IMG/VR virus record: IMGVR_UViG_3300028841_000403
DNA: 61,002 bases
Origin: a virus
Reading direction: 5' to 3' (one strand)
The position numbers were made by a program, and so were the translations under genes. A model generated the notes under the pieces. That model had not been told where the DNA came from. It saw nothing but the letters and a program-made list of their open reading frames with translations, and made no database searches. This document shows positions 1 to 61,002 of this stretch, piece by piece. Within the stretch, counting starts at the first letter, position 1, and each line of letters begins with the position of its first letter.

Positions 1-141
1 AGGCTCTGGCGGCCGCGAACCGTGGACCCATCCGCCAGCGTCTCCCCGTACAGGAAGGCCTGCGCCCTGGCCTGGATTGTCGTCTGAAGAGCCGTCGCGT
101 CCTGGCCAGTGATGGGCACAACATTGACGACGATGGCGTAG
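1..141. repeat. Terminal direct repeat, copy 1 (141 bp, identical to 60862..61002). It is the overlap of a circular or circularly permuted assembly.
   Basis: Bases 1..141 read identically to the last 141 bases of the window. The repeat lies inside one continuous minus-strand ORF (baseplate J), so it is an assembly overlap and not a biological LTR. Unique length is 60,861 bp. Confidence 0.93.
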
Positions 142-971
142 GGCACTTCTGTGGGGGCGGCCACCTCCACCAGGTCGCAGACCGGGCGCACATCATCCGC
201 GCTCAGGGCGGCCTGCACCAGCGCAACCATGGCGGGATCCGGAAGGCCTGTGCTCATGAGTGGATAGACCGAGACCACCCCGGGGGCCGTGCTCTCCACC
301 GCGACATCCACGATGTCTGGGCTCGTGCTCAGCGCGAAGTAGCGGTAGGCCCCCAACGGCCCCGCCACGCTGAAATGATCCGGCGCCTCGAAGATGCGCT
401 GCCGCAGGTGATCATCCGTCTCTGGGTCCATGCCACCCGAGGTCACGGTGATATTCGTGACCGAGGCCACCTCTGGGACAATCGTTATGGGAATCGTGAT
501 GTCTCCGGGCTGGTATCCATTGGTCGCGGTGCCGGTGTTCAAGCACACGGCGTCCACTTCGCCGCTGAGTTGCCCCTTGGGGATAAGCAGCGTCTGGATG
601 GAATTGAAGACGGCTTTTCCATCGTTACTCTGGATGGTGTAGCCGAGCGCGATGGGGAAATCAGCGAGCTGTGCAGCGGATAGGGTGATTCGAAGCCTCG
701 TCGTACTGCCCGACGAACCCAAGCGTGAAACCCCTAGCAGCTGGGCGAGGTTATCGAGGTTGGACCCGGAAGCAAAAGCGACCAGCTGCTGCTCACAGGC
801 GTACTGGATACCGATTCGAACCTGCGTCTCACGGAAGGCTGCCAAATCGATCAGGAGCCGTTCGACCTGAGCCGGCTGAAGGGTCTTCCCCGTTGAGGTC
901 TGGTACAGCGCGACGAGATCCGCGGTGACCTGCGCGGGATCCGTGGAGATAAACTCGGGCGCTGTCGTCAT
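1..971 (-). CDS. J: Baseplate assembly protein J (P2 gpJ / Mu gp47 family), N-terminal part. The ORF continues across the circular junction to the stop at 60699.
   Basis: ATG at 971 with a GAGGAG SD upstream. My own translation, MTTAPEFISTDPAQVTADLVALYQTSTGKTLQPAQVERLLIDLAAFRETQVRIGIQYACEQQLVAFASG..., looks like Baseplate_J. The frame stays open to base 1 and resumes at 60861; 377 aa in total. Confidence 0.88.
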   Translation of the reverse strand, partial: MTTAPEFISTDPAQVTADLVALYQTSTGKTLQPAQVERLLIDLAAFRETQVRIGIQYACEQQLVAFASGSNLDNLAQLLGVSRLGSSGSTTRLRITLSAAQLADFPIALGYTIQSNDGKAVFNSIQTLLIPKGQLSGEVDAVCLNTGTATNGYQPGDITIPITIVPEVASVTNITVTSGGMDPETDDHLRQRIFEAPDHFSVAGPLGAYRYFALSTSPDIVDVAVESTAPGVVSVYPLMSTGLPDPAMVALVQAALSADDVRPVCDLVEVAAPTEVPYAIVVNVVPITGQDATALQTTIQARAQAFLYGETLADGSTVRGRQS

Positions 972-1006
972 GAAGGCTCCTCATTCAACCCGAAGAAAGA
1001 AAAGTT

Positions 1007-1537
1007 TCAGGATGAGATGAAAACAATGTCGTAAAGATCCGCTTCAACAGTAGTTAGATAGTCCGTGCTGTTGATGACACTTCCGCCTTTGGCACCCGTT
1101 TCGCTCACGAGAATCTTGATCGTAGACGGATCAACCGTAAGGGATTTGGTGAGGAGCACATCGAAGGTTCCGTTTCCCGTGTTCCAGCTACAGGTCTGGT
1201 CGAAAGACAGGGACGGCGTGCTCCCATCCGTGGAGTAGTAAACCGATGCTGTGCCATTTGGGCCAACAACGGTACCGTTGCCGTTCGCGATAATGACCTT
1301 AATCCGCACATTCAGCGTCCCGGCGATAGCACTATGGGCCGGGGCACCGGAATAGGTCTGGGTGCCTGCCGTTGAAGCGGACCCCGTTGCGGAGACGCTG
1401 TGCGACGAGGTGTCCACGGCGGCGGCGGTGGTGTCGTAGCCATACGATGGATTCGTAACGGTGAGCCCGGTTGTCGAGATCGTCGTTGGCCGGAAGGCCA
1501 AGACCGACTGAACCCAGTTGGGCATCTGCACGAGCAT
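1007..1537 (-). CDS. Hypothetical fibre-associated protein (candidate distal adhesin or fibre assembly factor)
   Basis: ATG at 1537 overlaps the stop of the upstream fibre gene (ATGA). 176 aa, rich in Ser/Thr/Gly/Asn. Local GC is visibly lower than the flanks. It sits directly 3' of a fibre gene. Confidence 0.55.
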   Translation of the reverse strand: MLVQMPNWVQSVLAFRPTTISTTGLTVTNPSYGYDTTAAAVDTSSHSVSATGSASTAGTQTYSGAPAHSAIAGTLNVRIKVIIANGNGTVVGPNGTASVYYSTDGSTPSLSFDQTCSWNTGNGTFDVLLTKSLTVDPSTIKILVSETGAKGGSVINSTDYLTTVEADLYDIVFISS

Positions 1538-2934
1538 CAGAGCAGGCTCCCCAGCAGCACGGCACCGATGTCCGCGAGGTTGGCGTCCTGGGTGCCGGGG
1601 GCCGTGATGGTGAGGATATCCCCCGGCGCGAAGCTGGTGGCCGTGCAGGTCCAGGTCGGGACCGTTCCGGCGGCCGCAAAGACCATCGTGCCGATGTTGG
1701 TCCCGTTCTTCGCGATGTTGAAGGTCGCCGAGGCAAACGCCGCGGTTCCAGCCTTGCCCTGGGACCCCGAGAGGTTCGTGGGAAGGGAGAAGTTCCGCAC
1801 CGCGGGAAAGCGCAGGATCACCGCCGAGGCAGCTGGCTTGCCGGTGCATCCGAAACCGATGTCATAGGACCCGGGATGCTGGTGATCGGCCCGCGCCGCA
1901 GAGGAGCTGGTTCCCACGGCGCCCGCGCCCTGGGCCACCGGCGCCGTGGAGCTGAGGTTCATGGGCGAGATGGCCTGCCAGTTCGCCAGCGTTGTGGGAT
2001 CGGAGGTCGTGAGGATGAAGCCCTCATTCCCCAAGTCTGTGCGGACCGCCACATCGCCCTGCTGGGCGCTCAGCGCCAGCATCGCCGCCTGGGACGCGAC
2101 CACGAAGGTGTCTGTGATGGCCAAGGCCGGAAGCTGAGAGGACGGAACCTTACCGCCACTGTCCAACGACGCGACACCGCTTGGCTGACCCACAGAACTC
2201 AAGGCCACACGGGAGGAATCCGTGGGGTGAACATGGTCTCCGCGGGAAGCCTGCGAACTACTTCCGGCAGACACGGTTCCATCCATCACCGGCGCCGTGG
2301 AGCTGAGGTTCATGGGCGAGATGGCCTGCCAGTTCGCCAGAGTTGTGGGGTCAGAGGTTGTGAGGATGAATCCCTCGTATCCGAGGTCGCTCCGAATCGC
2401 TACATCCCCCTGCTGGGCGCTCAGGGCCAGCATGGCCGCCTGCGAGGCCACCACGAAAGTGTCCGTGATCGCAAGCGCCGGAAGCTGAAGCGTCGGAACC
2501 TTGCCCCCACCATCAAGGGTGGCAACCCCATTCGGGGCCCCGAGGAAGGCGAACGGAATCCAGGCCCCGCGCATGTCCTCCCACGAAACGACGCCAGCGG
2601 AATCCGTCACCACCTTGAAACTTGGCAGGAGCCCCGCGGTCCAGCCTGTCTGGTTCACGCTCCTCACGCCGGCCAGGGTCCGCTCGATGTAATTGGTGGA
2701 GTTCGCCACCAGCAGCACCGTCCCACCCGCCACGGTCGTCCAAGACGAACCATCCCATCCCTGGCCCCCGAGGTCCCCCCAGGTCAGGCCAGCCGTATGG
2801 TCTTCGTCCTTGCCCCATCCGGCCATCGCCGCGTTTACGGCACCCTGGATGGTGGACAGGATTCCGTCCGCTTCAGCAGGCGTGAGATCCGAGCCCTTGA
2901 GCGCACGGGTGAGAAGAGAGATCGGCCAGGTCAT
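1537..2934 (-). CDS. Tail fibre protein with an internal tandem duplication
   Basis: 465 aa. Two copies of the module GVA(T/S)LDxGGKVPxxQLPALAITDTFVVASQAAMLALSAQQGD..., which is typical of phage fibres. Each copy is followed by an HxH motif (GDHVHP / ADHQHP). The start overlaps the gpW stop (ATGA at 2931..2934). Confidence 0.8.
   Translation of the reverse strand: MTWPISLLTRALKGSDLTPAEADGILSTIQGAVNAAMAGWGKDEDHTAGLTWGDLGGQGWDGSSWTTVAGGTVLLVANSTNYIERTLAGVRSVNQTGWTAGLLPSFKVVTDSAGVVSWEDMRGAWIPFAFLGAPNGVATLDGGGKVPTLQLPALAITDTFVVASQAAMLALSAQQGDVAIRSDLGYEGFILTTSDPTTLANWQAISPMNLSSTAPVMDGTVSAGSSSQASRGDHVHPTDSSRVALSSVGQPSGVASLDSGGKVPSSQLPALAITDTFVVASQAAMLALSAQQGDVAVRTDLGNEGFILTTSDPTTLANWQAISPMNLSSTAPVAQGAGAVGTSSSAARADHQHPGSYDIGFGCTGKPAASAVILRFPAVRNFSLPTNLSGSQGKAGTAAFASATFNIAKNGTNIGTMVFAAAGTVPTWTCTATSFAPGDILTITAPGTQDANLADIGAVLLGSLL
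1880..2530 (-). repeat. Tandem duplication inside the fibre gene (period 351 nt, about 117 aa, 2 copies)
   Basis: caccggcgccgtggagctgaggttcatgggcgagatggcctgccagttcgccag occurs at 1936 and again at 2287. The shadow ORFs 1946..2137 and 2297..2488 translate almost identically. Confidence 0.9.
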
Positions 2935-3383
2935 ACCGTGCCTCCAGAAATCCAGCCATCCTCAACCCAGCCCGTTTCGACCCAACCGTTTCCGCTCGTG
3001 GTAGTCGGATACGATGTGAGATTTACGAGGCTTGTGTAGATCGTCTGGCCCCCAACCAAGCTCCAGAGGATCTGCACCTTCAAGCGCCCCTGCGTCATCT
3101 CAACCAGGCCCACCTGCCTGACCTTGATCCGCGGCTCCCATTGCGCAAGCGCCCGCGTCACCTCTCGCACGATGGCGGGCCGCGCCTGGATCATCGGAGC
3201 GTCCATCAGATCCTGAACCAGGCTGCCGAAAGTCGGCCGTAGCGCGGAAGAGCCCTGCCGCGTGCCGAGGATGATCAGAATGCACTGGGCGATGTCATCC
3301 AGGCCTTCGACCACCTCACCGGGCGCGGAGAGCTTCGGCTGCCAGTACGGCACCGGGGGAATGGCGGCGCTGATCAGGCCCAT
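2931..3383 (-). CDS. W: Baseplate wedge protein W (GPW/gp25 family)
   Basis: 150 aa from the ATG at 3383; the ORF track extends to a TTG at 3422. ...EVVEGLDDIAQCILIILGTRQGSSALRPTFGSLVQDLMDAPM...AIVREVTRALAQWEPRI resembles gp25/gpW. Confidence 0.85.
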   Translation of the reverse strand: MGLISAAIPPVPYWQPKLSAPGEVVEGLDDIAQCILIILGTRQGSSALRPTFGSLVQDLMDAPMIQARPAIVREVTRALAQWEPRIKVRQVGLVEMTQGRLKVQILWSLVGGQTIYTSLVNLTSYPTTTSGNGWVETGWVEDGWISGGTV

Positions 3384-3420
3384 TGATCCAGGTTCCGGCC
3401 CCTTCGGCGCGGAGCCGAGC

Positions 3421-3440
3421 AAAGGGCTTTAGGGGCTTCG
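3421..3440 (-). promoter_or_regulatory. Conserved late-operon motif, copy 1 (minus strand CCCCTAAAGCCCTTTGCT)
   Basis: The core 12-mer aaagggctttag (plus strand, 3421..3432) lies in the 60-bp V-W gap, about 40 nt 5' of the gpW ATG. The same 12-mer occurs at 14906, 27965 and 31251. Confidence 0.6.
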
Positions 3441-3443
3441 CTC

Positions 3444-4064
3444 TCAGGGCACATAGGAGGCCGTCCCGCCCGAGGTAACTGGGTGCGTGTGGTGGGCCGG
3501 GTTCGTGCCGGTGGCATGGAGGTTGGCCGAGGTGCTCAGGTCGCCCGCGAAGGTGCCTTTCCCGGTGCATGTCAAGTCCCCGTCCACCTCCGTGGGGCCC
3601 TCCAGCTTGATCGTCGCGCCCTTCACGAGTGCCTGGCCCCCTGCCTGGACCGTGGCGCCGCCCTGGGCCTCCACGGAGGCGTTGCCCTGGGTGGACACGC
3701 TCACATCGCCCTGGGCCGTCACCTCGACGCTCCCAGCCATGGTGGCGGTCAGCTTCTTCGCGCTCGGATCGTAGCTCAGCGCGGTGCCGTCCTCGAACTC
3801 CTTGTGCCAGACCATGGGATCCGTCACCGGGGCCGGATCGGCCTTGCTGTAGACCCCGCAGAGCACCACCCCGTCCTCGGCGTGCTCGTCCAGCAGCACC
3901 ACCACCTGGGCGTCCTTCCGCGGCATCTGGTACTCGCGGGCCCCGAGCGTGAGGGCCTGCCCCACGGGCAGCCAGTCCGTGACGATGCCGTCCTCGACCA
4001 GCTGGACCCGCACCTTGACGGCCTCCCCGTCCACCTCCGTGACGATGCCGCGCTGCCACCTCAC
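3444..4064 (-). CDS. V: Baseplate spike/assembly protein V (P2 gpV / Mu gp45 family)
   Basis: 206 aa. MRWQRGIVTEVDGEAVKVRVQLVEDGIVTDWLPV... is an OB-fold N-terminus, followed by a repetitive beta-helix-like tail (VEVTAQGDVSVSTQGNASVEAQGGATVQAGG). It sits between D and W. Confidence 0.85.
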   Translation of the reverse strand: MRWQRGIVTEVDGEAVKVRVQLVEDGIVTDWLPVGQALTLGAREYQMPRKDAQVVVLLDEHAEDGVVLCGVYSKADPAPVTDPMVWHKEFEDGTALSYDPSAKKLTATMAGSVEVTAQGDVSVSTQGNASVEAQGGATVQAGGQALVKGATIKLEGPTEVDGDLTCTGKGTFAGDLSTSANLHATGTNPAHHTHPVTSGGTASYVP

Positions 4065-5065
4065 TGGGACACCTGCCGGATGTTGAGCTCCGCCTGGTAG
4101 CCGGTGGACCGGCTCAGGGAGTGCTTCGCCTGCGTGATCTGCCAGAGCCCGTTCAGGGCTCCGAAGTCCAGCAGCTCGATGTTCACCCCGGCGCGGAGCT
4201 TCAGCTTGCCCGGCATCATCAGCGTGACCTCCCGCTCCCAGCCCTTGTGGATGCGGAGGGCCTGGGCGGCGAGCCGCTTGGAGTGGCTATGGTTCTCGAC
4301 GCGCTTACGGATCCGCAGCACATCCCCCGGCTGCTTCCCCTGCCCTTTCAGGGTGTCCGTGATGACCTGCTTCGTCTCCTGGTCGAAGAACGAGGCGTCC
4401 GTCCCGCCGTTGGCCGCGTGCACCTTGTCCCGGAAGTCCCAGCTCGTCAGGTCCGTCATGCGCACCTGGTAGACCGGCGGCCGCTTCTCCAGCTCCTCCA
4501 GGTCGTGGAAGACGAGCTTGGTGCCCTTCACCGTGAAGACGAAGCCCATGTCCCAGGCCACCCGGTTGAGGAAGCCCAGGTCCGTCTCCCGGAACTGCGT
4601 CCGCCGGTGCCAGCGGATCTCCGGCACGGTGCCCACGATGGAGAGGCCCTGCTTGCTGGCGATGGTCTGCGCCAGCTGGCGGAGGCTCATGTCCTCGAAG
4701 GCGCGGCTGTCCTTCGTCCGCAGACCGTTCTGCACGCCCGTGCCCAGGGCGCGGATCACCACCACGCTGGGCGGCCCGCTGACCTCGATCTCGTCCACCT
4801 GGAACTCGCCGCAGTCCATCAGGTCGCCGTCTTCCATGCCCATGGCCGCGGAGATGGTCGTCCCTTTCACCGGATACCAGGCGTCCAGCCAGAGGCCCGC
4901 CCTGTCCTCCAGCTTCACCTCCAGGCCGTCACTCTGGCCCTTCATGTTGTCCGTGTACTCGAGGCTGAGGAGGTGCGGGCTGAAGTCCCCCGTCACATCC
5001 TTGTGGTTCACCCGGATGGTGAAGTCCACGCCCGAGGCCCGCAGCTGATCGGTCACTGGAGCCAT
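4061..5065 (-). CDS. D: Late control protein D-like tail/baseplate hub protein (P2 gpD / Mu gp44 family)
   Basis: 334 aa. Gene order is U-X-D-V. ...SLRQLAQTIASKQGLSIVGTVPEIRWHRRTQFRETDLGFLNRVAWDMGFVF... is typical of Phage_GPD. Confidence 0.85.
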   Translation of the reverse strand: MAPVTDQLRASGVDFTIRVNHKDVTGDFSPHLLSLEYTDNMKGQSDGLEVKLEDRAGLWLDAWYPVKGTTISAAMGMEDGDLMDCGEFQVDEIEVSGPPSVVVIRALGTGVQNGLRTKDSRAFEDMSLRQLAQTIASKQGLSIVGTVPEIRWHRRTQFRETDLGFLNRVAWDMGFVFTVKGTKLVFHDLEELEKRPPVYQVRMTDLTSWDFRDKVHAANGGTDASFFDQETKQVITDTLKGQGKQPGDVLRIRKRVENHSHSKRLAAQALRIHKGWEREVTLMMPGKLKLRAGVNIELLDFGALNGLWQITQAKHSLSRSTGYQAELNIRQVSQ

Positions 5066-5274
5066 GGCGGCATCCCCGCGTCAGGAGGCGTGGCGGGCTC
5101 GTCCAGGATCGGCACCTTCAGCGAGAGGCCGCCGGGCAGCACCGTGAGCGCTATCTGGTCCGGGTTCGCGCGCATGATGGGCTCGAAACGGTTGGCGTCC
5201 CCGTAATAGGTGAAGGCCAGTAGATCCCAGCGCTCGCCGTCCCGCGAAATGTGGGTCAGGTAGTCCTGGCTCAT
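5053..5274 (-). CDS. X: Tail protein X (P2 gpX-like, LysM-like)
   Basis: 73 aa from the ATG at 5274: MSQDYLTHISRDGERWDLLAFTYYGDANRFEPIMRANP.... The longer track ORF (to 5475) is upstream read-through in a GC-rich frame. Confidence 0.8.
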   Translation of the reverse strand: MSQDYLTHISRDGERWDLLAFTYYGDANRFEPIMRANPDQIALTVLPGGLSLKVPILDEPATPPDAGMPPWLQ

Positions 5275-5276
5275 CG

Positions 5277-5804
5277 TCAGCCTCCCCCGCTGGGCACGAT
5301 CTGGCCCTGGTCGTTCCGGGTGTAGGCCTGGGTCGCCGGCGCCGGCGTCCCCGTCTTCTTCGGCCGGATGGCCGGGGGCGGGTTCTGCCGCGCGCTCACC
5401 TGGAGGTTCGCGTCCTCGACCCATTCCTTGAGCGTGAGGCTCATCTCGACCCACTTCAGCGTGCCGTCCGGCCACAGCTCCTGGATCGTCTGGCTCAGGT
5501 CCGTCAGCACATACTCGCCCGCGTAGATCCCGGCGTCCGGGGCGGTCCCCAGGACCAGGCTGAGCACCTGGTGGTCCCGGAGGGCCTGCGTGATGGCCTT
5601 CACCGAGGCCTGCACATCAGCGTTCAGGGTGTAGTGGACCCGGATCTGGAGGGTGAGCTCGTCCAGCTTGTCGCCCACGGCCTGGAGCACCGGCTTCCGC
5701 CCCACGAGGCTCTGCTCGGCGTATTCCACCGACATGCGGGCGCTGAAGTCCGTGGGCCCCGCCAGGGGCTCGAACTGGACGCTTCCCAGGGATCCCCAGC
5801 TCAT
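5277..5804 (-). CDS. U: Tail protein U (P2 gpU family)
   Basis: 175 aa from the ATG at 5804, which overlaps the tape-measure stop (ATGA). MSWGSLGSVQFEPLAGPTDFSARMSVEYAEQSLVGRKPVLQAVGDKLDELTLQIRV.... The 736-aa track ORF is an artefactual extension. Confidence 0.8.
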   Translation of the reverse strand: MSWGSLGSVQFEPLAGPTDFSARMSVEYAEQSLVGRKPVLQAVGDKLDELTLQIRVHYTLNADVQASVKAITQALRDHQVLSLVLGTAPDAGIYAGEYVLTDLSQTIQELWPDGTLKWVEMSLTLKEWVEDANLQVSARQNPPPAIRPKKTGTPAPATQAYTRNDQGQIVPSGGG

Positions 5805-8362
5805 TTGAAGTCCCTCCGCGCACCGCTCGCCTGGCGCCGGGCAAGCGCCTGCTCCAGCTTGGGCAGCAGCTCCATGAGGCCCTGCTCGATGAGCTTCTGG
5901 TCCTGGGCCGTGGCGGTCCCCGTCAGGGTGAAGTTGGCGTGGATCACTACGGCCGGGCCCTGGGGGCGCGCCGCGGCGCTTCCGCCCAGGCCGGCGGCGA
6001 TGGCCAGGGAGGGCGCGCCCGCCGCGAAGGCCGCGCGGGCCATCCCCATGGCGCCGGAGATGCGGGAGATGAGGGCCTGGGGCCGGATGCTCTCGGCGAT
6101 GGTCTCCATGAAGCGCAGGCGGTGCAGGTCCGAAAGCGGGCCCTCCTTCGCCGGGCTGAAGGGCAGGAACTTGCGGACCTTGCCCACCACGGCCTTGATC
6201 GCCTCGATGGGGTGCGAGGCCGCGGCCTTCATGCCGTCCGCCAGCATCCGCACGAGCGTGCCGCCAGCGGCCCGGAACACCGTGTACATGCTCTTCAGCA
6301 GGTTCCAGGTCTTCGTGATGCCGCCCCACAGCCACTTCGGGAAGTCGTAGAAGACGGCCTTGAGGAGCTTGAAGACGCCCACCACGACCACGATGCCCTG
6401 CATGACCTGGAGCGCGAGCACCTTCCCGAAGGCGATGCCGACCTTGATGCCGGTGGCCAGGCCCTTGTTGCTCTCCCCCATGGGCACGAAGAGCTGCTTG
6501 ATCCAGGCCCACACCTTCCCGAGGGCCTCCCACACGGGCTGGAGCGCCACGGCGAACTGGTGGAGCTGCGGCCGCATCGGCTCGATGGCTTCCAGGAAGC
6601 CCTGCTTGATGCCGCGCCAGATTCCCACGAAGAAGTTCCGGATGGGCACCCAAAACTTGTAGATCAGCGCCGCCGCGGCGACGATGATGCCCACCACGAT
6701 CCAGACCGGCGCCGTGATGGCCCCGAAGAAGGCCCCGATGCCCGACAGGATGCCGCCCAGGGCGCCCCACACGGCGGACAGGCCGCCCGTGACGATGCCC
6801 ACCACGCGGCCCATGGCGCCCTTGGCGATGGTCGGCAGCGCCACCACGCCCTCGGAGACGGCTGTGCCGGCGGTCTTGCCCAGCACCTTCGGGAGGCTGG
6901 GGAGCATGATGCCGTTCCCCTTCTCCACCATGTGCATGAGCCGGATCTTCGTGGAGGCCTTCACCGCCTCCTCGCCCAGGCTCTTCACGAGCCCGCGCCC
7001 CGTGCGCCAGGCGCTCCCGATGTCCTTCCAGGTGCTCACGAGCTTGGAGCCGGTCTTCAGCATCAGGCCCAGGGCCAGGGTGGCGCCGCCCAGGGCCACC
7101 AGCAGCACACCCAGCACCGTGGCGCCGGAGAAGAACGCCCGCGTCAGCCGGGGGTGGGCCTCCACGAACTGCTGAACCCGATCCGCGGCCTTGCCCAGCA
7201 GGTCCGCGAGCCACTTCAGCTCCGGCCCCACCGTCTCGGCGATCTTGGCCATGGCCTGGACCACCGTGCCCTTGGCCGCCTCCCACTTGTAGGAGAGGCT
7301 CGCCGTGCGCCGCTCCATCTCCGTCTCGATGCCGGCGCGGTCGTTCATCACGGCCATCTGCTTGTTGAAGCTGGCCGTGTTCATCAGGTTCAGCACCGAC
7401 GCGCCTTCGGTGTTGAAGAGGCTGTTCATGAGGCGCTGGAAGCCCTGCTTGTTCTCGCCGAACTTCGCGCGGGTCTGGTCCACCCACGGCAGCAGGTATT
7501 CGAGCCCCTTGAACCGGCCCTTCTCGTCGTAGAAGTCGAGGTTGATCCCGTACTGCTTCACCAGGTCTTCGGCGCCCTTGATGCGCCAGCCGCGGCCCGA
7601 GGCCAGCTTCGCGCTGATGATCGAGAGGTTCTTGTAGACCTGGGCGAAGCCAGCGCCGGCGCTGGCCGGGTCCTTGCCCTGCTGCACCATCATGGCGGCG
7701 ATGGCCATGTGGTCCTTCATCGCGTCCACGCCGGTCATGCCCATGGCGCGCGCTTCGGGCGCGACATAGCCGCTGAAATACTTGAAGGACTCAACATCCA
7801 CGCCGAGGCCCTGCTTGCCCTTCACGAGGATGTTGGCGAACTTGAGGAAGTCCTTCCCGGAGATGTCCCAGGCGTTGCTCATGGCGGCGCCGAGCTGGCC
7901 CGCGCGCTCCTTGTTCATCTCCAGCAGCACGGCCATGTGCGCCATGGCCTGAAGGCCTCCGCCTTCGATGGTCGCGTCCGCGAGCCCCGTCTCCTTCATG
8001 GCGATCGCCACGCGGGCGTAGTCGTTCATCGTGCCTTCCAGCACGGTGCCGAGGTCCTGGGCCTGCTTCTCGATGGAGTTCAGGAACGGCGAGGACCCAT
8101 GGGCCGTGCTGAACGCGATCCGCAGGTTCGTCTGCGCGCGGTCCAGCTCCTTGTAGGCCTCCACCGGCTTCATGAGCGCGGCCAGGATCGCCACGCCAGC
8201 GGCGGTAGAGCCAGCCCCGAGGCCCACCATGCCGTCCCCGACCCGGCCCACCTTGTCGTTCAGGAGGTCCAGGTCCTTCCGCACCTTCCCAAAGGCGGAC
8301 CGCGCGGTGGAGGACATCTCGTCCACCGCGCGGAGCACCAGGGTGAGGCGCATGCTGTCCAA
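5801..8362 (-). CDS. Tail tape measure protein
   Basis: 853 aa, the largest ORF in the tail module. It lies between the chaperone pair and gpU. Ala/Gly-rich helical sequence with hydrophobic central segments. Start is a TTG at 8362 (GGAGG 8 nt upstream) or an ATG at 8353. Confidence 0.85.
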   Translation of the reverse strand: MDSMRLTLVLRAVDEMSSTARSAFGKVRKDLDLLNDKVGRVGDGMVGLGAGSTAAGVAILAALMKPVEAYKELDRAQTNLRIAFSTAHGSSPFLNSIEKQAQDLGTVLEGTMNDYARVAIAMKETGLADATIEGGGLQAMAHMAVLLEMNKERAGQLGAAMSNAWDISGKDFLKFANILVKGKQGLGVDVESFKYFSGYVAPEARAMGMTGVDAMKDHMAIAAMMVQQGKDPASAGAGFAQVYKNLSIISAKLASGRGWRIKGAEDLVKQYGINLDFYDEKGRFKGLEYLLPWVDQTRAKFGENKQGFQRLMNSLFNTEGASVLNLMNTASFNKQMAVMNDRAGIETEMERRTASLSYKWEAAKGTVVQAMAKIAETVGPELKWLADLLGKAADRVQQFVEAHPRLTRAFFSGATVLGVLLVALGGATLALGLMLKTGSKLVSTWKDIGSAWRTGRGLVKSLGEEAVKASTKIRLMHMVEKGNGIMLPSLPKVLGKTAGTAVSEGVVALPTIAKGAMGRVVGIVTGGLSAVWGALGGILSGIGAFFGAITAPVWIVVGIIVAAAALIYKFWVPIRNFFVGIWRGIKQGFLEAIEPMRPQLHQFAVALQPVWEALGKVWAWIKQLFVPMGESNKGLATGIKVGIAFGKVLALQVMQGIVVVVGVFKLLKAVFYDFPKWLWGGITKTWNLLKSMYTVFRAAGGTLVRMLADGMKAAASHPIEAIKAVVGKVRKFLPFSPAKEGPLSDLHRLRFMETIAESIRPQALISRISGAMGMARAAFAAGAPSLAIAAGLGGSAAARPQGPAVVIHANFTLTGTATAQDQKLIEQGLMELLPKLEQALARRQASGARRDFK

Positions 8363-8365
8363 GGG

Positions 8366-8889: not shown

Positions 8890-8913
8890 GGGGGTGCCTC
8901 CTCCAGGCGGGCC

Positions 8914-9429: not shown

Positions 9430-9438
9430 GGGCTCTCC

Positions 9439-51094: not shown

Positions 51095-51204
51095 CAAGAG
51101 GGGTTTAGATGGAGCTAGGGCTAGAAGAACTCACCCAGGAAAGATAGAGACTTAAAACGCCGCGAACAAGAGAAAAGCCGCGCCGTTGCTCACTTTCTGC
51201 AAGT

Positions 51205-51521: not shown

Positions 51522-51546
51522 TAAAAGTGCAGTCCTCGGAGAGCGT

Positions 51547-52748: not shown

Positions 52749-52755
52749 CCGGGTG

Positions 52756-52785
52756 CAATTGCACACCGGCACCCGTGTGCAATTG
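52756..52785. repeat. Two further CAATTG palindromes immediately downstream of the par operon
   Basis: GTGCAATTGCAC (a perfect 12-mer, 52753..52764) and GTGCAATTGTGG (52777..52788). The flanks ccgggtgcaattg and cacccgtgt also occur in the upstream cluster. Confidence 0.65.
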
Positions 52786-52870
52786 TGGCCGGGCACCAGG
52801 GCAGGGTAGGGGGCTGGCCTTGCGCAAGCCCGCGCCGATAGAATCAGCGCCACGCCATCGAGGAGGCCCA

Positions 52871-53443: not shown

Positions 53444-53507
53444 GGCTTCCACAAGTCCACGGCTTTCAATATTTAGCTTGCGATAATGGCAGTTTCCGCA
53501 AGCTGAA

Positions 53508-53589: not shown

Positions 53590-54006
53590 TCAGCGGCCCG
53601 GCTTCCAGTCCTTGGGGAGCCCGCAGGCCTCCAGCACCCGGCCGATGTAGACCTGGGAGACGCTCACCCCGTTCTCGGCCTGCGCCACGCGGGACTGGGT
53701 GATGCCCATGCGCTCGGCCAGGGCCATCTGCGTCAGCCCGGCCTTGGATCGCGCGGCCTTCAGGGAGCGCGCGATGGTGTTCAGCATGAAGGGCTCGGCC
53801 TCAACAACGGGCCGGGCCTTGCGGGCGCCGCCCTTCACGACCTTCACCTCCACGCCGGCGCGCCTGTTCCCGCGCACATTCAGCAGGGACGCCAGCTGCT
53901 CCATCGGCAGCATCACGAAGTCCTGGTTCTTCACTCGGATCACCGATCCGTGGACCTTCTCAAGGTCCTTCTTGCTCAACAGCCCGACCATAGCGGGTCC
54001 TTTCAT
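53590..54006 (-). CDS. higA: HigA-like antitoxin (C-terminal XRE HTH)
   Basis: 138 aa; an alternative ATG at 53991 has a better SD. ...LKAARSKAGLTQMALAERMGITQSRVAQAENG.... It lies 3' of a RelE/HigB-like toxin. Confidence 0.65.
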   Translation of the reverse strand: MKGPAMVGLLSKKDLEKVHGSVIRVKNQDFVMLPMEQLASLLNVRGNRRAGVEVKVVKGGARKARPVVEAEPFMLNTIARSLKAARSKAGLTQMALAERMGITQSRVAQAENGVSVSQVYIGRVLEACGLPKDWKPGR

Positions 54007-54038
54007 AAATTGGATGGTGGTGGTGCTCTGGCCCTGCC

Positions 54039-54293
54039 CTACTCCTCGTAGACCTCCTTGCGGTGCTTGATCCGCACGATGAGGATGTCTGGCTTCTGCT
54101 CTTTGAAAATCACCCGCCAGTCGCCCGTGCGGATGCGGTAGTGCCCTTTCCAGTCGTGGCTCAGGGCCTTCGCGCCTGAGACATTTGGCCAGTTCTTCAA
54201 CTTCTCCACGACCTTGAGCACTCGAGCCTGCATGCCCAGCGGCAGGTCGGAGAAGTCGTCTTGGCCATCGGGGGAGATGAGAACTTTTACCAT
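54039..54293 (-). CDS. higB: RelE/ParE-superfamily toxin in the HigB arrangement (toxin first)
   Basis: 84 aa. ...HDWKGHYRIRTGDWRVIFKEQKPDILIVRIKHRKEVY is a typical RelE-fold C-terminus. Confidence 0.7.
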   Translation of the reverse strand: MVKVLISPDGQDDFSDLPLGMQARVLKVVEKLKNWPNVSGAKALSHDWKGHYRIRTGDWRVIFKEQKPDILIVRIKHRKEVYEE

Positions 54294-54294
54294 G

Positions 54295-54318
54295 CCATAA
54301 TATTACATCATATTATGG
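54295..54318. promoter_or_regulatory. AT-rich inverted repeat abutting the toxin start (toxin-antitoxin operator/promoter candidate)
   Basis: ccataatat - tacatc - atattatgg, with 9-bp perfect arms. It is a local AT island in a GC-rich genome. Confidence 0.55.
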
Positions 54319-54347
54319 CCACACGCAAGGGGAACTTTCCGGGTTCT

Positions 54348-55334
54348 TCAGGCCGGGCGGCGCCGCCGCTTCAGGTCCTCTGAAAGCATGGTGCTCACCT
54401 CCGCCGTCACCGCCTTGCGGTTGTCGTCGTAGCGCTCCACCATGTCGAACTTCTGGTGCCGGCTGAACTTCTTCGCCGTCCGCATGTCCCCGTTCGTGGA
54501 CTCGAGCACCTGTGTGATGGCCGTGTGGCGCAGCCCGTGGGGGCGCGTCCTGAAGCCGAGCTTGTGCCCCAGCTCCCTCACGAGGTCGTAGATGGCGCTT
54601 CCCGAAAGGGGCTCCCGCCAATCGTCCGGACTCGCGTTGTCCAGCCGCACGAAGAGCGCGCCTTCCCAGTCCCCGCGGACGGCGATCCAGGACCTCAGCG
54701 CGTCCGCGGTCCCGCGGCCGATGGGAATGGGCTGCGGCTCGCTTCGCCCTTTCCCTTTGATCCACACCTCGCCGCGTCCTTTCCCATCCACATTCACCTG
54801 GCGCGGGAACTGGATCGCGGCCACCTCGCCGCGGCGAAGGCCGAGGTCGTAGAGCAGGTGCAGGATGGCCGTGTCGCGCGCGGCCTTCGATTCATCCTCC
54901 TGGGCCTGCGCCGCCTCCATCATGCTGGCCACGCGATCCGGGCCAGGCCCCGCGGTGTCCTTGAGCGCGATCACCTTGGGAGGCCTCACCTCCACGGTCC
55001 AGCTGCAGAAGCCCAGGATCCTCGCCACGCGCACGAGGCGCCGAAGGCTGGCGATGCGCCGCGCGACCGTCGCCGGCGCCTTCCCATCCTCCTGCTGCGC
55101 CATCCGGAAGCTGGCGATCATCGCGTTGCCGCCCACCGGCCCCGCCGAGATGAGGCTCGCTGCCGCGGCCCTGATGCTCGGGGCTTTCAGGAAGAGGCGG
55201 AAGGCCTCCGCGTCCCTCGTGTAGGCTTCTCGGCTGGCATCCGCGAGCTCCGACATCACCACCTGCCACAGGCGCTCGATGTCCTGGATAGCTGAGGTCG
55301 CGAGCCCACCGTGCGGCTGGGGATCCATGAGCAT
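54348..55334 (-). CDS. Tyrosine recombinase (phage integrase / XerCD-like)
   Basis: 328 aa from the ATG at 55334; the track ORF reaches 55403. ...LLYDLGLRRGEVAAIQ..., ...HGLRHTAITQVLE... and ...VERYDD indicate the R..HxxR..Y catalytic set. Confidence 0.8.
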   Translation of the reverse strand: MLMDPQPHGGLATSAIQDIERLWQVVMSELADASREAYTRDAEAFRLFLKAPSIRAAAASLISAGPVGGNAMIASFRMAQQEDGKAPATVARRIASLRRLVRVARILGFCSWTVEVRPPKVIALKDTAGPGPDRVASMMEAAQAQEDESKAARDTAILHLLYDLGLRRGEVAAIQFPRQVNVDGKGRGEVWIKGKGRSEPQPIPIGRGTADALRSWIAVRGDWEGALFVRLDNASPDDWREPLSGSAIYDLVRELGHKLGFRTRPHGLRHTAITQVLESTNGDMRTAKKFSRHQKFDMVERYDDNRKAVTAEVSTMLSEDLKRRRRPA

Positions 55335-55359
55335 GATTCTAGGCCCTTTTCTCCAGGGC

Positions 55360-55650
55360 TCAACCGGCCGTGTAGAGGGCGCGTTCCAGCTCTTCCCTTG
55401 CAACGGCGGGCAGATTCTCGTGCACGAGGTCCAGGAAGGCCTGCTCCGTGCCTGACTCGTCTCCCAGCTCGATCCCCTGGAAGAGCAGGCCCCACAAGGG
55501 CCGGATGGCGCTCAGAGGGCTCACGCCCATCATTTCGCTGGCCGCAAGGGCAGCCACCACCTGGTGCCGGACCGGCATCTCAGCCCCACAGATCCTCACG
55601 AAGGCCGAGAGTTTCTCGATCTGAGGGGGCTGAAGGGGCGCGGCCAGCAT
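55360..55650 (-). CDS. Hypothetical protein upstream of the recombinase
   Basis: 96 aa; no family recognised. Confidence 0.4.
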   Translation of the reverse strand: MLAAPLQPPQIEKLSAFVRICGAEMPVRHQVVAALAASEMMGVSPLSAIRPLWGLLFQGIELGDESGTEQAFLDLVHENLPAVAREELERALYTAG

Positions 55651-55853: not shown

Positions 55854-56438
55854 TTGGTCCGCGAGTTCGGAATCGAGGCGATTCAGCCTGTCCGGCTTCT
55901 GGCCATGCTTCGCGTCCGCGGAATGACCGTCGAGCATCTCTCCAGGCTCTCCGGGATCTCGGACCGGACCATCAACCGCATCAACCAGGATCCGAGCTAC
56001 TCGCCGCAGGATGGCACATGGGTGAAGCTCGCCCACATCCTGCGCTGCGACAAAGACTGGCTCTCGAAGGGCGAAGGCGCGCCCATGAACACCCCGGATG
56101 GCCGCGTGGCCCTCATCATGGCCGCGAAGGGATGGGATGCGGAAGACCTGCACCAGGCCATCAAGGGAAGCGTTCCGCTCGAGACTATCCGCGAATTCCT
56201 CGACGGCCACCTGCCTGTGGATGAGCAGACCTCCATCCAGGTCAGCCTCTACGCCAGCGTGCTCGACTCCGATGCGCGCTGGATCCTCTACGGCTCCAGC
56301 CCCAATAGCTCCAGCGCCTCGCGTCCATTCAAGGAAACCGTCCGCCTTGCCGAAGCGGTGAAGGAAGCTCTTCCTGGCGGCGTGGACGCGGACAAGATCG
56401 CCCTCAAGATCGTGGACCTCTACTTCCGGAAGAACTGA
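55854..56438 (+). CDS. XRE-family HTH DNA-binding protein (two HTH-like segments)
   Basis: 194 aa from the TTG at 55854 (AAGGGG upstream). ...LRVRGMTVEHLSRLSGISDRTINRINQD... and a second segment ...MAAKGWDAEDLHQAIKGSVPLETIREFLDG.... Confidence 0.6.
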   Translation: MVREFGIEAIQPVRLLAMLRVRGMTVEHLSRLSGISDRTINRINQDPSYSPQDGTWVKLAHILRCDKDWLSKGEGAPMNTPDGRVALIMAAKGWDAEDLHQAIKGSVPLETIREFLDGHLPVDEQTSIQVSLYASVLDSDARWILYGSSPNSSSASRPFKETVRLAEAVKEALPGGVDADKIALKIVDLYFRKN

Positions 56439-58116: not shown

Positions 58117-59868
58117 CTAGGGCGTCATCATCTTGATGTTGTGGGCCACGAGGCCGCCGGCGACGAAGAGATGCCCCTTGTCCAGGCTCAGGTGGTAGAC
58201 CGTCTCCTCGATGCCCGTGGGCTCGATGCTCAGGACCGGCGTCTCCTCGAGCACGCCGGGCGCCGTTTCCCACAGCGTGGTGAGGCCCACCAGCATGGAT
58301 TCCACCGGTGGATAGTTGGCCTGCCAGTAGCCCTTCGGCGCGTCCTTCAGGAAGATGCGGTGATCTCCGCTGCACAGGATGAAGCCGTGCTCCGTGACGA
58401 CCCGGAAGAGCTTCCGGCCCTCGTACACGAAGACTTCCTGCACCGTCGCGTCCACGCGCCCGAAGGTGGCGTCATCGTAGGCCCGGATCACCTGGCCCAC
58501 CTTCACCGTCTCAGCAGGGATGCTGCTCCCATCCGCCAGACCCACCCAGGTGCCCGCGGGGACACAGCCGGGATCGCTCCCGCCACCGCCGCTCGTCGCC
58601 GACATCGTGATGTTCAGAACCTTCTCGACCACCGTTGCGGTGGGCGTGGCCGAATCCGTCAGGCGCACGCGCACCTTGTAAGGACCGGAGTTCGCCTGGG
58701 TGAAGGTCACGCTGCCCGTCACCTGGTCGCTGCTGGTCCCGCCGATGGCCGCGCCGGGAAGCGTGGTGTCCGCGCCGGCGACGATGGACCAGGTGTAGGG
58801 CGTGATGCCCCCGGAGCCCGTGAGCCCGAACTGGACCGCGAAGGGTCCCGCGCCGCTGAAGGCGAAGCTCTTGTCCGTGGAGGTGATGGTGAGGGGCTCA
58901 ACCGCGTAGGGGTTGAGGGTGATGTTCAGCACCTTCTGCGTGGTGCGAGGCGTGGAAGCCTGGTCCACCGCCTGCACCTTCACCTGCCAGGTGTTCGGCA
59001 CGGTCGGGGTGCCGGTGAAGGTCAGCTTCAGCTGGTTCCCGCTCACGATTTCGGCCTTGGGATCCGTGGTCCCGTCCTGCAGCCCCGCGCCTGTCACGAT
59101 GCTCCAGGTCACGGCGCCCACGGCGCTCAGGGCGCCCAATGGCACGAGCACATAGTCCGGGAAGGTCTGCGTGGCGCTCTCCTGGAAGGTCTGGTCCCCG
59201 GTCGTGATCGTCAGCGCATCCAGCGGCGGCTCACCCAGGTATTTGATGGAGCCGCGGATCGTCCCGGCGGGGGCACCGTCGCGCTGGAAGTAGACATAGG
59301 GGTCCACCCAGCTCGGGTCCACGAAGACCATGCCGTAGAGGTCCTCCGAAGGCTCGCTGTCGGAGGTGTCGAGCTGGTTGTCCAGCAGGATCGGCGCCCC
59401 CCCGTCATGCACCAGGAAGGCCTGGATGCTCGAGTTGATGCTGTTGGCTCCGACGCTGAATCCTTCCACCTTGTGGAAGGCGAGGATCTCGTAGAGCCCC
59501 TGTTTCGCCAGCTTGAAAGTGCTCGCGTCCCGCGGCTGGCAGGCGGTCCCGTACCGGGTGGCCGTGTAGCCGGTGATGGTCTGGAAGTTGCCGCCCCCGG
59601 TGTTCGGCGTGCCGGCGCGGAAGCTCAGGGCCTCGATGGCCTTGGTGTCTAGATAGTCGAGGCGGTGCCCCAGGGAGTCGAAGGTGCTGCGCGCGGCATC
59701 AACCTCGCCTTCCACTTCGTCCAGGCCCGCCTTCAGGTAGGCCGTCCGGTTCGCCAGCTGCTTGGCCTGGAGGTTCGACACGCCAGAAGGGCCGCCCTCC
59801 ACGGGATCCGCGGCCGAAAGCTGGTAGATGCTCGGCTCGAAGGTGGGGGTTTCCGGAAGGTTCGCCAT
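58117..59868 (-). CDS. Tail fibre protein with Ig-like repeats and a C-terminal Hint/intein-like (BIL-type) domain
   Basis: 583 aa, 3' of tail protein I. The N-terminus MANLPETPTFEPSIYQLSAADPVEGGPSGVSNLQAKQLANRTAYLK is fibre-typical. Two ...TWSIV(T/A)GA... Ig-like units follow. The last 149 aa run CVPAGTWVGL...SGDHRIFL...VYHLSLDKGHLFVAGGLVAHN-IKMMTP. Confidence 0.8.
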   Translation of the reverse strand: MANLPETPTFEPSIYQLSAADPVEGGPSGVSNLQAKQLANRTAYLKAGLDEVEGEVDAARSTFDSLGHRLDYLDTKAIEALSFRAGTPNTGGGNFQTITGYTATRYGTACQPRDASTFKLAKQGLYEILAFHKVEGFSVGANSINSSIQAFLVHDGGAPILLDNQLDTSDSEPSEDLYGMVFVDPSWVDPYVYFQRDGAPAGTIRGSIKYLGEPPLDALTITTGDQTFQESATQTFPDYVLVPLGALSAVGAVTWSIVTGAGLQDGTTDPKAEIVSGNQLKLTFTGTPTVPNTWQVKVQAVDQASTPRTTQKVLNITLNPYAVEPLTITSTDKSFAFSGAGPFAVQFGLTGSGGITPYTWSIVAGADTTLPGAAIGGTSSDQVTGSVTFTQANSGPYKVRVRLTDSATPTATVVEKVLNITMSATSGGGGSDPGCVPAGTWVGLADGSSIPAETVKVGQVIRAYDDATFGRVDATVQEVFVYEGRKLFRVVTEHGFILCSGDHRIFLKDAPKGYWQANYPPVESMLVGLTTLWETAPGVLEETPVLSIEPTGIEETVYHLSLDKGHLFVAGGLVAHNIKMMTP

Positions 59869-59878
59869 GTGCCTCTCC

Positions 59879-60706
59879 TCAGCTCGGGTTCAGGGTCCAT
59901 TCGCCGACCAGCTGCCAGTCGGAGGTCTTCTCAAGCGCGGCGGAGCGGGTGATGGTGGCCACCACGGCTCCGCCGGCGTCCAGCAGGGTGAACTTCTGGA
60001 AGGTGCTCCCCGCCTCTTCGCCCTGCGTCAGGCCGAAGGTGGCCAGGTAGGAGCCCCCGCCCAGCGCGGTCAGGCCCAGGATGTCCTTCTGGTAGGTGGT
60101 GGTCCCGCCCAGGTTCTCCATTCGGACCTGCGTCACCAGGCCCAGCTTGGAGGTGTCCACGATCCCGCCGGAGAGGGCCAGGCGCATCTTCAGGCCGGCC
60201 AGGTGCCGGGAGACCGGCTTCCAGGCCTCCACCGAGGCGCGGATGAGGGCCACATCGGCGGCCGCCAGGCCGCGGTCCCCCAGGTCGAACTGCACCCGGA
60301 ACATCGCCCACACATTGCCGCCGCCGTAGGGGTAGCTCCCATCGTATTGGATCGCCCCGTTGTAGAAGTGCTGGCCGTCCAGCCGCTCCTCGAGGACGCC
60401 GTTGGGCCAGCCCACCGCGTCCAGGGCCTGCTTGATGGCCCAGGGCGTGCCGGTCTTCCGGTGGAGGGAGATAGCCCGCTTCAGCAGGTCCCGCTTCTGC
60501 GCGTCCGTGGTGGCCAGGCTCCATCCGCGGACACCCAGCACCCGGAGCTGACTCGCCAGGCTATCCAAGGCTGCCGCCGGCGCGAGGTCCATGTTGTAGA
60601 TGGCCAGCAGCCCCGTGGAGAGGGTTGCCTGCCGGTCTATGAGGGCCTGGAAGGCCTGGCTCCGCTCATCGGCAATACTGGAGGGCAGAAGGCGGGCATC
60701 AGGCAT
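59879..60706 (-). CDS. I: Tail protein I (P2 gpI family)
   Basis: 275 aa. MPDARLLPSSIADERSQAFQAL..., ...KRDLLKRAISLHRKTGTPWAIKQALDAVGW... and ...WKPVSRHLAGL parallel P2 gpI. It overlaps the J stop by 8 nt. Confidence 0.85.
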   Translation of the reverse strand: MPDARLLPSSIADERSQAFQALIDRQATLSTGLLAIYNMDLAPAAALDSLASQLRVLGVRGWSLATTDAQKRDLLKRAISLHRKTGTPWAIKQALDAVGWPNGVLEERLDGQHFYNGAIQYDGSYPYGGGNVWAMFRVQFDLGDRGLAAADVALIRASVEAWKPVSRHLAGLKMRLALSGGIVDTSKLGLVTQVRMENLGGTTTYQKDILGLTALGGGSYLATFGLTQGEEAGSTFQKFTLLDAGGAVVATITRSAALEKTSDWQLVGEWTLNPS

Positions 60707-61002
60707 CCGAGGCCCCCAACATCGTGACCGTCACCCCGGTGCAGTTCGCCCACTCCCCCGGGCCCACGATCTGGAAGGTGGGGCTCACCACCTGCAGGTC
60801 GTAGACGCCAGGAACGGTGAGGGCCGCGATGACCTGAGAGGGCACCAGGTCCTGGCCCAGGAGGCTCTGGCGGCCGCGAACCGTGGACCCATCCGCCAGC
60901 GTCTCCCCGTACAGGAAGGCCTGCGCCCTGGCCTGGATTGTCGTCTGAAGAGCCGTCGCGTCCTGGCCAGTGATGGGCACAACATTGACGACGATGGCGT
61001 AG
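60699..61002 (-). CDS. J: Baseplate assembly protein J, C-terminal part (same gene as 1..971; 60862..61002 duplicates 1..141)
   Basis: The frame is open to the window end. The C-terminus is ...VIAALTVPGVYDLQVVSPTFQIVGPGEWANCTGVTVTMLGASDA, with the stop at 60699. Confidence 0.88.
   Translation of the reverse strand, partial: YAIVVNVVPITGQDATALQTTIQARAQAFLYGETLADGSTVRGRQSLLGQDLVPSQVIAALTVPGVYDLQVVSPTFQIVGPGEWANCTGVTVTMLGASDA
60862..61002. repeat. Terminal direct repeat, copy 2 (identical to 1..141)
   Basis: Direct comparison of the two window ends. Confidence 0.93.

Follow-up and report, generated by a model that had tools for sequence, protein, structure and literature searches.

A BcepMu-type phage genome without transposition genes carries a plasmid-style maintenance block

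Introduction

The virus record IMGVR_UViG_3300028841_000403 of IMG/VR, a stretch of 61,002 nucleotides (nt) that we refer to in its entirety as the window, raises the question of how a phage with the particle of a transposable, Mu-like myovirus persists in its host when its genome contains no transposase. A sequence-only reading described a complete circular Mu/P2-mosaic myovirus genome with plasmid-type maintenance genes, and proposed an extrachromosomal, P1-like prophage combined with Mu-type morphogenesis genes. Our follow-up indicates that the window is the complete genome of an uncultured temperate tailed phage (a myovirus), most likely representing a known lifestyle in a new lineage. A prophage kept as a plasmid, that is, a phage-plasmid, is the best-supported lifestyle, and we consider it moderately likely.

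Results

The window closes into a circle and encodes a BcepMu-type virion

The first 141 nt of the window (positions 1-141) are repeated exactly at its end (60862-61002), and closing this terminal overlap gives a circle of 60,861 bp. The overlap had been placed inside the open reading frame (ORF) for baseplate protein J, and the frame of this gene is indeed restored by the closure. Its N-terminal 323 codons occupy 1-971 on the minus strand and continue over the junction into 60699-60861, with the C-terminal part at 60699-61002, also on the minus strand; read over the junction, the frame comprises 1134 nt and 377 amino acids (aa) with a lone terminal stop. The joined product matches Pfam Baseplate_J at E 1e-46, and its residues 5-376 align with BcepMu gp50, a P2 J-like baseplate protein, at E 5e-86. 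Because the ends are identical and J is intact across the join, the circle is real at the assembly level. The value 141 is a common largest k-mer size, and such an overlap is what an assembler leaves when ending a circular path. About 90 genes were called from third-position G+C, nearly all of them on the minus strand, and the G+C content is ~68% along the whole window.

Eighteen virion proteins are colinear with those of the Burkholderia phage BcepMu, at 27-44% identity in a six-frame comparison, with matches in the order portal, F, G, I, T, gp37, sheath, tube, tape measure, U, X, D, V, W, J, I and the N-terminus of H. The nearest sheath proteins, at about 41% identity, belong to BcepMu, phiE255 and their relatives. 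The head genes had been called Mu-like, and Pfam agrees, with matches to Portal_Mu (1.7e-97), Phage_Mu_F, Phage_tail_S (G-like), Gp36, Gp37 and a Mor domain; the proposed gpI-like protease/scaffold was recovered as a protein with 34% identity to BcepMu gp32. The Mu-like set of head genes (portal gp29, F, G, I, T, gp36 and gp37) together with Mor is present in full, and Pfam assigns a P2-type tail (sheath, tube, tape measure, D, V, W, J and I). Given 18 colinear BcepMu homologues, the Mu-type head joined to a P2-type tail is, by gene content and order, the known BcepMu-type virion module and no new mosaic. The gene types behind the term "Mu/P2 mosaic" were therefore correctly read, whereas the novelty of the mosaic falls away, since the BcepMu arrangement was already known.

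The window shares with BcepMu and phiE255 (Bcepmuvirus, transposable Mu-like myoviruses) the virion gene order from portal to tail fibre, an SLT-type endolysin (29933-30520, minus strand; Pfam SLT 8e-17, with a match to BcepMu gp22) and a Mor-type late activator. The gene for the Mor-domain protein lies at 31259-32095 on the minus strand (Pfam Mor 1.9e-8); these coordinates are those of the longest ORF, and the true start may be later. In contrast to BcepMu, whose ends lie in host DNA, the window genome closes into a circle. It is also 24 kb larger, adding RecET, methyltransferases and a block of rep, par, toxin-antitoxin and recombinase genes.

Transposition enzymes and the Mu-type terminase are absent

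BcepMu encodes an rve transposase, a MuB-like ATPase, GemA, a DUF3164 protein and HU, and none of these early proteins has a match in the window. The BcepMu transposition proteins TnpA (gp09) and TnpB (gp08) found nothing at 1e-3, and a tblastn search of all six frames of the window with MuA, MuB and the A and B proteins of phage B3 returned nothing better than E 0.18. The Pfam scan took in every ORF of about 200 aa or more, and no transposase family was found among them. The absence of a MuA/MuB-type transposase, claimed in the sequence-only reading, was thereby upheld; the accompanying statement that no ORF is large enough to encode one was not, since a 654-aa ORF exists at 38404-40368. We considered this ORF, the largest non-structural one, as a degenerate transposase and rejected it, Pfam showing it to be a cytosine-5 DNA methyltransferase.

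The large terminase (23480-25183, minus strand; Terminase_6N and Terminase_6C) is not of Mu type. Neither this protein nor any other in the window matches the BcepMu terminase, gp28, and the enzyme is 42-45% identical to the terminases of Bacillus, Faecalibacterium, Arthrobacter, Staphylococcus and Microcystis phages. It is thus foreign to Mu and BcepMu, with its closest kin in phages of Gram-positive bacteria and cyanobacteria, although the portal and the remaining head are of the Mu/BcepMu type. A DDE (rve/MuA) transposase, a MuB-type target ATPase and a Mu-type large terminase, three hallmarks of Mu-like phages, are each missing. Since the BcepMu early proteins are absent and the terminase is of another type, the transposition enzymes have, as judged from gene content, been exchanged together with the packaging enzyme.

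Early operon, immunity region and maintenance block

The early operon (36573-48985, minus strand; assigned by Pfam and PHROG) starts from a promoter-like site at 48985-48957 and encodes, in transcription order, a RecE/YqaJ-like exonuclease, RecT, an RdgC-like protein, an AAA_23 ATPase, ORFs without family, the 654-aa C5 methyltransferase and an N6/N4 methyltransferase; a dUTPase, a VRR-NUC nuclease and the Mor-domain protein follow the two methyltransferases. The RecT/YqaJ recombination module that had been predicted here is borne out by matches to both RecT and a YqaJ/RecE-like exonuclease. A 438-aa plus-strand ORF at 41886-43202 was rejected as a gene, as it overlaps better-scoring minus-strand frames and has no family. 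Divergent from the operon lies the gene for a Cro/CI-type helix-turn-helix (HTH) protein, the candidate prophage repressor (48892-49647, plus strand; HTH_31, HTH_3 and the repressor families phrog_4 and phrog_8).

An 8-kb maintenance block (48.9-56.4 kb) is situated between the early operon and the tail-fibre genes, outside the lytic operons. It comprises the repressor gene, a gene for a 402-aa protein, a gap of 695 bp, parA, the gene for a ParA partner and a 222-aa ORF, followed on the opposite strand by antitoxin, toxin and recombinase genes and a 96-aa ORF, and then by the gene for a second Cro/CI-type HTH protein (55854-56438, plus strand; HTH_26, HTH_3). The 222-aa ORF (52775-53443, plus strand) has no family in Pfam, PHROG or NCBIfam; its nearest Atlas cluster, mostly Myxococcota with a score of 0.86, is a lead only.

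A winged-helix protein is the candidate replication initiator

The 402-aa protein (49644-50852, minus strand) is an orphan winged-helix protein and a candidate replication initiator. Its gene converges on the repressor gene, diverges from parA and is not part of the early lytic operon. An exhaustive search of 1.84 billion representatives recovered 19 relatives, in which the N-terminal 100 residues are most conserved; a few of them weakly match winged-helix families, including HTH_36, RP-C and DnaD_N, and the Atlas leads for the protein itself were HTH_36, RP-C, RepL, RepA_N and Phage_rep_O. The predicted structure, with a mean predicted local distance difference test (pLDDT) score of 80, contains one winged HTH (residues 50-147), a disordered linker and two helical C-terminal parts. 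Foldseek matched the winged helix alone to PDB structures, of MarR/ArsR type. Predicted viral structures of the same overall layout were found at E 7e-6 to 5e-3 with low template modelling (TM) scores, and those with names include HTH, replisome-organiser, lambda O N-terminal, RepA-like and replication-initiator proteins. The family profile had no match among PDB sequences, and its comparison with a plasmid RepA by hhalign was negative. Of the proposed "Rep-like wHTH" protein, the winged helix is confirmed and the assignment to a Rep family is not, none being obtained by sequence. These data support no more than a protein that binds DNA and is built like an initiator of a phage or plasmid; a role in replication initiation is suggested by this architecture and by the nearest predicted viral structures. 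Pfam and PHROG scans of the about 90 called genes revealed no other initiator, helicase or primase.

The intergenic control region between this gene and the first repeats upstream of parA (50853-51205) contains a 17-bp perfect palindrome, GTTTGGTGACACCAAAC, just 5' of the rep-like start, a hairpin on the plus strand that resembles a terminator and has a T run (51027-51050), which no gene precedes in the rep-like/parA gap, and a stretch of reduced G+C at about 51100-51200. A small RNA from 50885-51055 running opposite a long leader of the rep gene would be consistent with copy control as in plasmids. A search of the whole window with Rfam at gathering thresholds was negative, and over 48.8-58.2 kb no hit was obtained at E up to 1, whether to a tRNA-like fragment or to another RNA family; there is consequently no tRNA-type attP clue and no known plasmid copy-control RNA.

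A small ParA, its partner and a four-base periodic array form a conserved cassette

The parA gene starts at the ATG at 51547 (51547-52200, plus strand) and encodes a small ParA of 217 aa, which had been predicted and was verified: CbiA, AAA_31 and MipZ score above the Pfam cut-offs and phrog_164 matches at 1.4e-32. The ParA model is matched from residue 15, and an N-terminal DNA-binding domain is lacking, as in the small ParAs of type Ib. The records matched by this ParA comprise 1563 from plasmids versus 96 from phages. Its best relatives are small plasmid ParAs with 30-35% identity, some followed by ParG, and the best-matching one is encoded on a Mesorhizobium plasmid and is followed by ParG and RepA genes. 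The adjoining partner gene (52200-52748, plus strand) encodes 182 aa with a conserved N-terminal peptide, a proline-rich linker and a C-terminal domain with a ribbon-helix-helix (RHH)-like sequence pattern. Five relatives, 58-65% identical in the C-terminal domain, all have the N-terminal peptide and the proline-rich linker. The C-terminal pattern fits strand-helix-helix by eye; a low-confidence model (pLDDT 65) is all-helical. The comparison of the partner with a ParG by hhalign was negative, and no match was found among PDB sequences.

An RHH partner flanked by palindromes had been proposed; the partner gene and the palindromes are there, and the RHH fold was not confirmed by the model. Nine of the 13 TGCAATTGCA-like near-matches in the window fall at 51198-52787, before parA and after the partner gene. 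The second palindrome pair, downstream of the partner gene (52746-52796), includes the only exact TGCAATTGCA of the window, and the copies upstream of parA, none of them exact and each with 1-2 mismatches, sit within the span of an unusual four-base periodic array (51206-51530). This array consists of 53 consecutive pyrimidine-purine-N-N tetramers at 51206-51417 and continues with few breaks to about 51530. Period-4 power peaks here at 8.0, compared with a genome mean of 0.75 and a standard deviation (SD) of 0.54 (~13 SD above the mean), and the longest such tetramer run in 43 other loci (about 600 kb), which served as a control, is nine. With ParA identified by Pfam and PHROG, a partner gene and clustered repeats, the window carries a plasmid-type partition system as expected of a phage-plasmid.

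The divergent layout of rep-like gene, tetramer array, ParA and partner recurs on an otherwise unrelated 4.5-kb contig, L041. There, the protein P0007, with 28% identity to the rep-like protein, diverges from a small ParA with 38% identity to that of the window (E 1e-45), which is followed by a partner of the same build. An array occupies the same position (2691-2850) with 37 consecutive tetramers, or 40 with one break, and the two arrays have the pattern in common and not the sequence. Scans of viral contigs with the rep-like protein and the partner gave no match, nor did a first metagenome scan, and L041 was the only contig recovered. Next to its par genes, at 749-1330, lies a Pycsar effector (PycTM) gene, which places that cassette on a mobile element with defence cargo.

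The nearest known counterpart of the array is the parH centromere of plasmid TP228, about 100 bp of degenerate tetramer boxes with AT-rich spacers (PMC3130281). In the type Ib system parFGH, as in the window, a small ParA-family ATPase is followed by a small partner with a flexible N-terminal part, and the DNA site upstream of the ATPase gene is made of many degenerate four-base units. Unlike parH, the window array is G+C-rich, extends over 212-325 bp and is defined solely by a pyrimidine-purine step every 4 bp, and the window partner has no detectable similarity to ParG. In view of this counterpart, we favour the array as a putative centromere and operator for the partner; alternatively, it may consist of iterons for the winged-helix protein. 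We tentatively entertain a further possibility, to which we give well under an even chance, namely that the winged-helix protein, array and ParA/partner constitute an undescribed, self-contained mobile replicon-partition cassette, in which a filament of partner or initiator protein would recognise the DNA site in a 4-bp register and which here would have converted a transposable-phage lineage to a phage-plasmid.

A plasmid-type recombinase and an addiction module complete the block

The tyrosine recombinase (54348-55403, minus strand) is Xer-like, with matches to Phage_integrase (3.7e-18) and to a XerC model. Translation probably starts at Met 24 of the longest ORF, and the alignments to the XerC and XerD models begin at model position 11, which corresponds to residue 51 of that ORF. 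With the core-binding domain beginning at about residue 50 and the start at residue 24, there is no room for an arm-binding domain, and the enzyme consists of a core-binding and a catalytic domain only, as do Xer and Cre. The best matches are plasmid-borne, first from Azospirillum (38-42% identity, E 1e-46 to 1e-53) and then from Synechococcus and Nostoc plasmids, with 305 records in all; among 50,697 phage records, identity reaches at most 28%, with a best E of 2e-7. By their nearest relatives, therefore, the sequence data support a plasmid type for both ParA and the recombinase. That the locus encodes a tyrosine recombinase had been recognised, with integration and multimer resolution offered as its roles; the identification holds, with multimer resolution as its putative role in the mechanism proposed below.

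The best full-length relative of the recombinase (38.6% identity) is encoded beside RepA on the Azospirillum thermophilum plasmid unnamed5 (NZ_CP029360.1, 54.9 kb). This plasmid also encodes a terminase, tape measure, tail tube, lysozyme, ParB, two recombinases and several toxin-antitoxin pairs. As virion genes and RepA occur on it together, it looks like another phage-plasmid, probably an undescribed one of a cultured bacterium. It shares only the recombinase with the window; its annotation is without tail sheath or baseplate genes, suggesting another virion type, and its Rep and Par are of other types.

The toxin-antitoxin pair (53590-54293, minus strand) conforms to the HigBA-like addiction module that had been predicted, with a ParE/RelE-family toxin gene first (54039-54293; ParE_toxin, 8e-8) and an HTH antitoxin gene second (53590-54006; HTH_3, 1.7e-9). 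Recombinase stop and toxin start are 54 nt apart, and this gap holds an AT-rich 11-6-11 inverted repeat (54293-54320), complementary at 10 of 11 positions within a 68% G+C genome, which could equally be a recombinase core site or an antitoxin operator. A 12-6-12 inverted repeat in the convergent gap (53475-53504) is one candidate recombinase site.

Plasmid maintenance weighed against other lifestyles

Sequence comparison establishes which genes are present and how they are arranged, that transposition genes are absent, and that the rep-like/array/parA cassette is conserved. Because the transposition genes are gone and a block of plasmid-style replication, partition, addiction and recombinase genes is present instead, persistence as a plasmid is most likely. 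In the mechanism that we propose, the lineage would have kept the BcepMu-type particle and Mor-type late control and lost the DDE transposase, the MuB-like ATPase and the Mu-type terminase. During lysogeny, the Cro/CI-type repressor encoded at 48892-49647 would silence the leftward early operon, and the 8-kb block outside this operon would stay active and keep the genome as a low-copy plasmid. The 402-aa winged-helix protein would fire an origin in the 50.85-51.2 kb gap. Copies would be segregated by ParA and its partner, which would act on the array and palindromes 5' of parA as well as on the palindrome pair that follows the partner gene. Cells losing the element would be killed by the HigBA-type pair, and multimers would be resolved by the arm-less Xer-like recombinase at a nearby inverted repeat; recombinases for dimer resolution may be carried by phage-plasmids (PMC7969092). 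After induction, recombination driven by RecE/RecT and replication would generate concatemers, to be packaged by the non-Mu terminase.

Several points weigh against a plasmid lifestyle, beginning with the fact that we infer the plasmid state itself, as we do the initiator function, the choice between centromere and origin DNA, and what the recombinase does. An assembly that closes over a 141-bp overlap is equally expected from circularly permuted, terminally redundant virion DNA. Headful packaging from concatemers also gives a circular assembly, and the circle alone does not show a plasmid. The 402-aa protein has no family in Pfam, PHROG or NCBIfam, and a search of 72,556 plasmids gave no match to it; the TM-scores of its structural matches are low, and it possesses one winged helix, not the two in tandem of the iteron initiators (RepA/Pi/TrfA). 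ParA matches NF041546, the NCBIfam model of plasmid ParA, over its full length at 109 bits, below the 180-bit equivalog cut-off, and the structural model of the partner does not reproduce an RHH fold. The recombinase could still be an integrase, as it is catalytically plausible and arm-less integrases exist. Finally, searches of the collections revealed no close relative among plasmids of cultured hosts.

If the phage were instead an integrative temperate phage, the recombinase would be its integrase, one of the nearby inverted repeats attP and the winged-helix protein a lytic initiator, with ParA and its partner serving, for example, genome positioning, a transient carrier state or exclusion. 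The enzyme has all catalytic-type motifs, lies between the tail fibre genes and the immunity region, the usual place of an integration module, and has candidate core-type sites beside it; yet plasmid-borne enzymes are far closer to it than is any integrase of the phage collection, it has no arm-binding domain, and neither a tRNA-like fragment nor an RNA family is found in 48.8-58.2 kb. A phage that does not transpose needs an initiator in any case, so the rep-like gene by itself is no argument for a plasmid, but this gene stands outside the lytic operon and is tied to parA as a conserved cassette. A partition system and an addiction module would be unexplained in an integrated prophage, and we regard purely integrative maintenance as rather unlikely.

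More improbable, in our estimate, is a dual lifestyle in which the element is normally a plasmid and also integrates and excises through its recombinase. Both gene sets are present, and recombinases may let phage-plasmids alternate between the two states (PMC7969092), but nothing resembling an excisionase was recognised, and the 96-aa ORF 5' of the recombinase gene has no family. We give very little credence to an artefact or a co-integrate, that is, a chimeric assembly or a phage inserted in a small plasmid such as Pseudomonas pBH6::BH9. Insertions of Mu-like phages in plasmids are documented (PMC6435834), and the G+C content of the block is slightly lower than that of the window (0.64 versus about 0.68). 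However, there is no transposase and hence no Mu-type insertion; the block lies exactly between the immunity and tail-fibre modules with no gene broken; genes throughout the window, including those of the block, have high third-position G+C; the circle closes inside an intact J gene; and the identical Rep-like protein sequence has been recorded from four contigs.

Other features of the genome

A tail fibre (H-like, 583 aa) and a P2 gpI-like baseplate protein are encoded at 58117-60706 on the minus strand (Tail_P2_I, 6e-21; matches to BcepMu gp51 and gp52). The C-terminus of the fibre (58117-59868) has a weak Intein_splicing match (E 4e-4, residues 545-577), which fits the Hint-like end noted on first reading. 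Two extra fibre-like genes between W and J (1007-2934, minus strand) found no match in Pfam or PDB sequence searches; the 465-aa product of one contains two copies of a domain, corresponding to a 243-nt repeat (1936-2178 and 2287-2529) with 82% identity at the DNA level, and G+C in this stretch falls to 0.47-0.54 at 951-1250. Pfam and BcepMu colinearity place the tail and neck genes at 2931-11732 on the minus strand, ascending as W, V, D, X, U, tape measure, an ORF at 8455-8889, tube, sheath, gp37 and gp36, the ORF being without assignment.

The head module includes the major head protein (T-like) and the head protease/scaffold (I-like) at 12264-14842 (minus strand; 33-34% identity to BcepMu gp34 and gp32, with Phage_cap_E) and the Mu G-like, Mu F-like and Mu-type portal genes at 20303-23471 (minus strand; Phage_tail_S, Phage_Mu_F and Portal_Mu). 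Between the I-like and G-like genes it is split by non-structural genes (14934-20302), among them a plus-strand SRAP (SOS-response peptidase) gene, a gene with a weak match to RadC and one for a DUF3560 protein. The packaging operon is headed by the gene for a 454-aa protein (26468-27832) that matches Pfam DAM-like-phage1 and GNAT-phage-like and is a candidate DNA-modification enzyme; it is followed by a 297-aa protein without family (25585-26478), and just upstream of its gene lies a complete tRNA-Gly (CCC) (27840-27913, minus strand). The best matches of the virion and Par proteins are proteobacterial, a weak lead to the host, as is the Myxococcota-rich cluster nearest to the 222-aa ORF.

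Discussion

Phage-plasmids are a well-described class (PMC7969092), and the window genome is a new lineage within this class and not a new kind of element. It resembles P1-type and other phage-plasmids (Pfeifer et al. 2021, PMC7969092) in combining virion, lysis and immunity genes, including a full virion, packaging and lysis gene set, with a candidate replicon, partition and addiction genes and a simple tyrosine recombinase, the P1 counterparts of the recombinase and addiction module being Cre and phd/doc. It differs from P1 in that no sequence relationship was seen and that its replicon protein falls in no known Rep family. Of the extrachromosomal P1-like prophage with Mu-type morphogenesis initially envisaged, the gene inventory stands and the extrachromosomal state is the best-supported interpretation, while "P1-like" survives as an analogy of function.

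No described phage-plasmid group was recognised among the matches of the window in phage and plasmid collections. A near-identity DNA search of phages gave no match, that of plasmids returned 141 nt of methyltransferase as the sole match, and portal-based scans of species genomes and IMG/VR revealed none above about 37% identity. The term "Mu-like" does not occur in the phage-plasmid survey (PMC7969092), and full-text literature searches found no description of a phage-plasmid on a BcepMu-type chassis. A Pseudomonas "phage-like plasmid" with Mu-like genes (PMC6435834) differs from the window in being a transposable phage inserted in a plasmid.

The window offers a clean case of a change of lifestyle by module exchange, in which a BcepMu-type particle is kept while transposase, ATPase and terminase are replaced together. 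Recombination genes, another type of terminase and a maintenance block of plasmid style take their place. This joint replacement suggests that the replication mode and the DNA packaging mode of a phage change together. The conserved tetramer array beside parA is an unusual element that could show in what way DNA is recognised by a small partition or initiator protein, and reading by a filament at a 4-bp register, if true, would amount to a new grammar for centromeres or origins. Should the plasmid state be confirmed, the phage-plasmid lifestyle would extend to a high-G+C uncultured lineage without a close relative in the phage, plasmid and species-genome collections searched.

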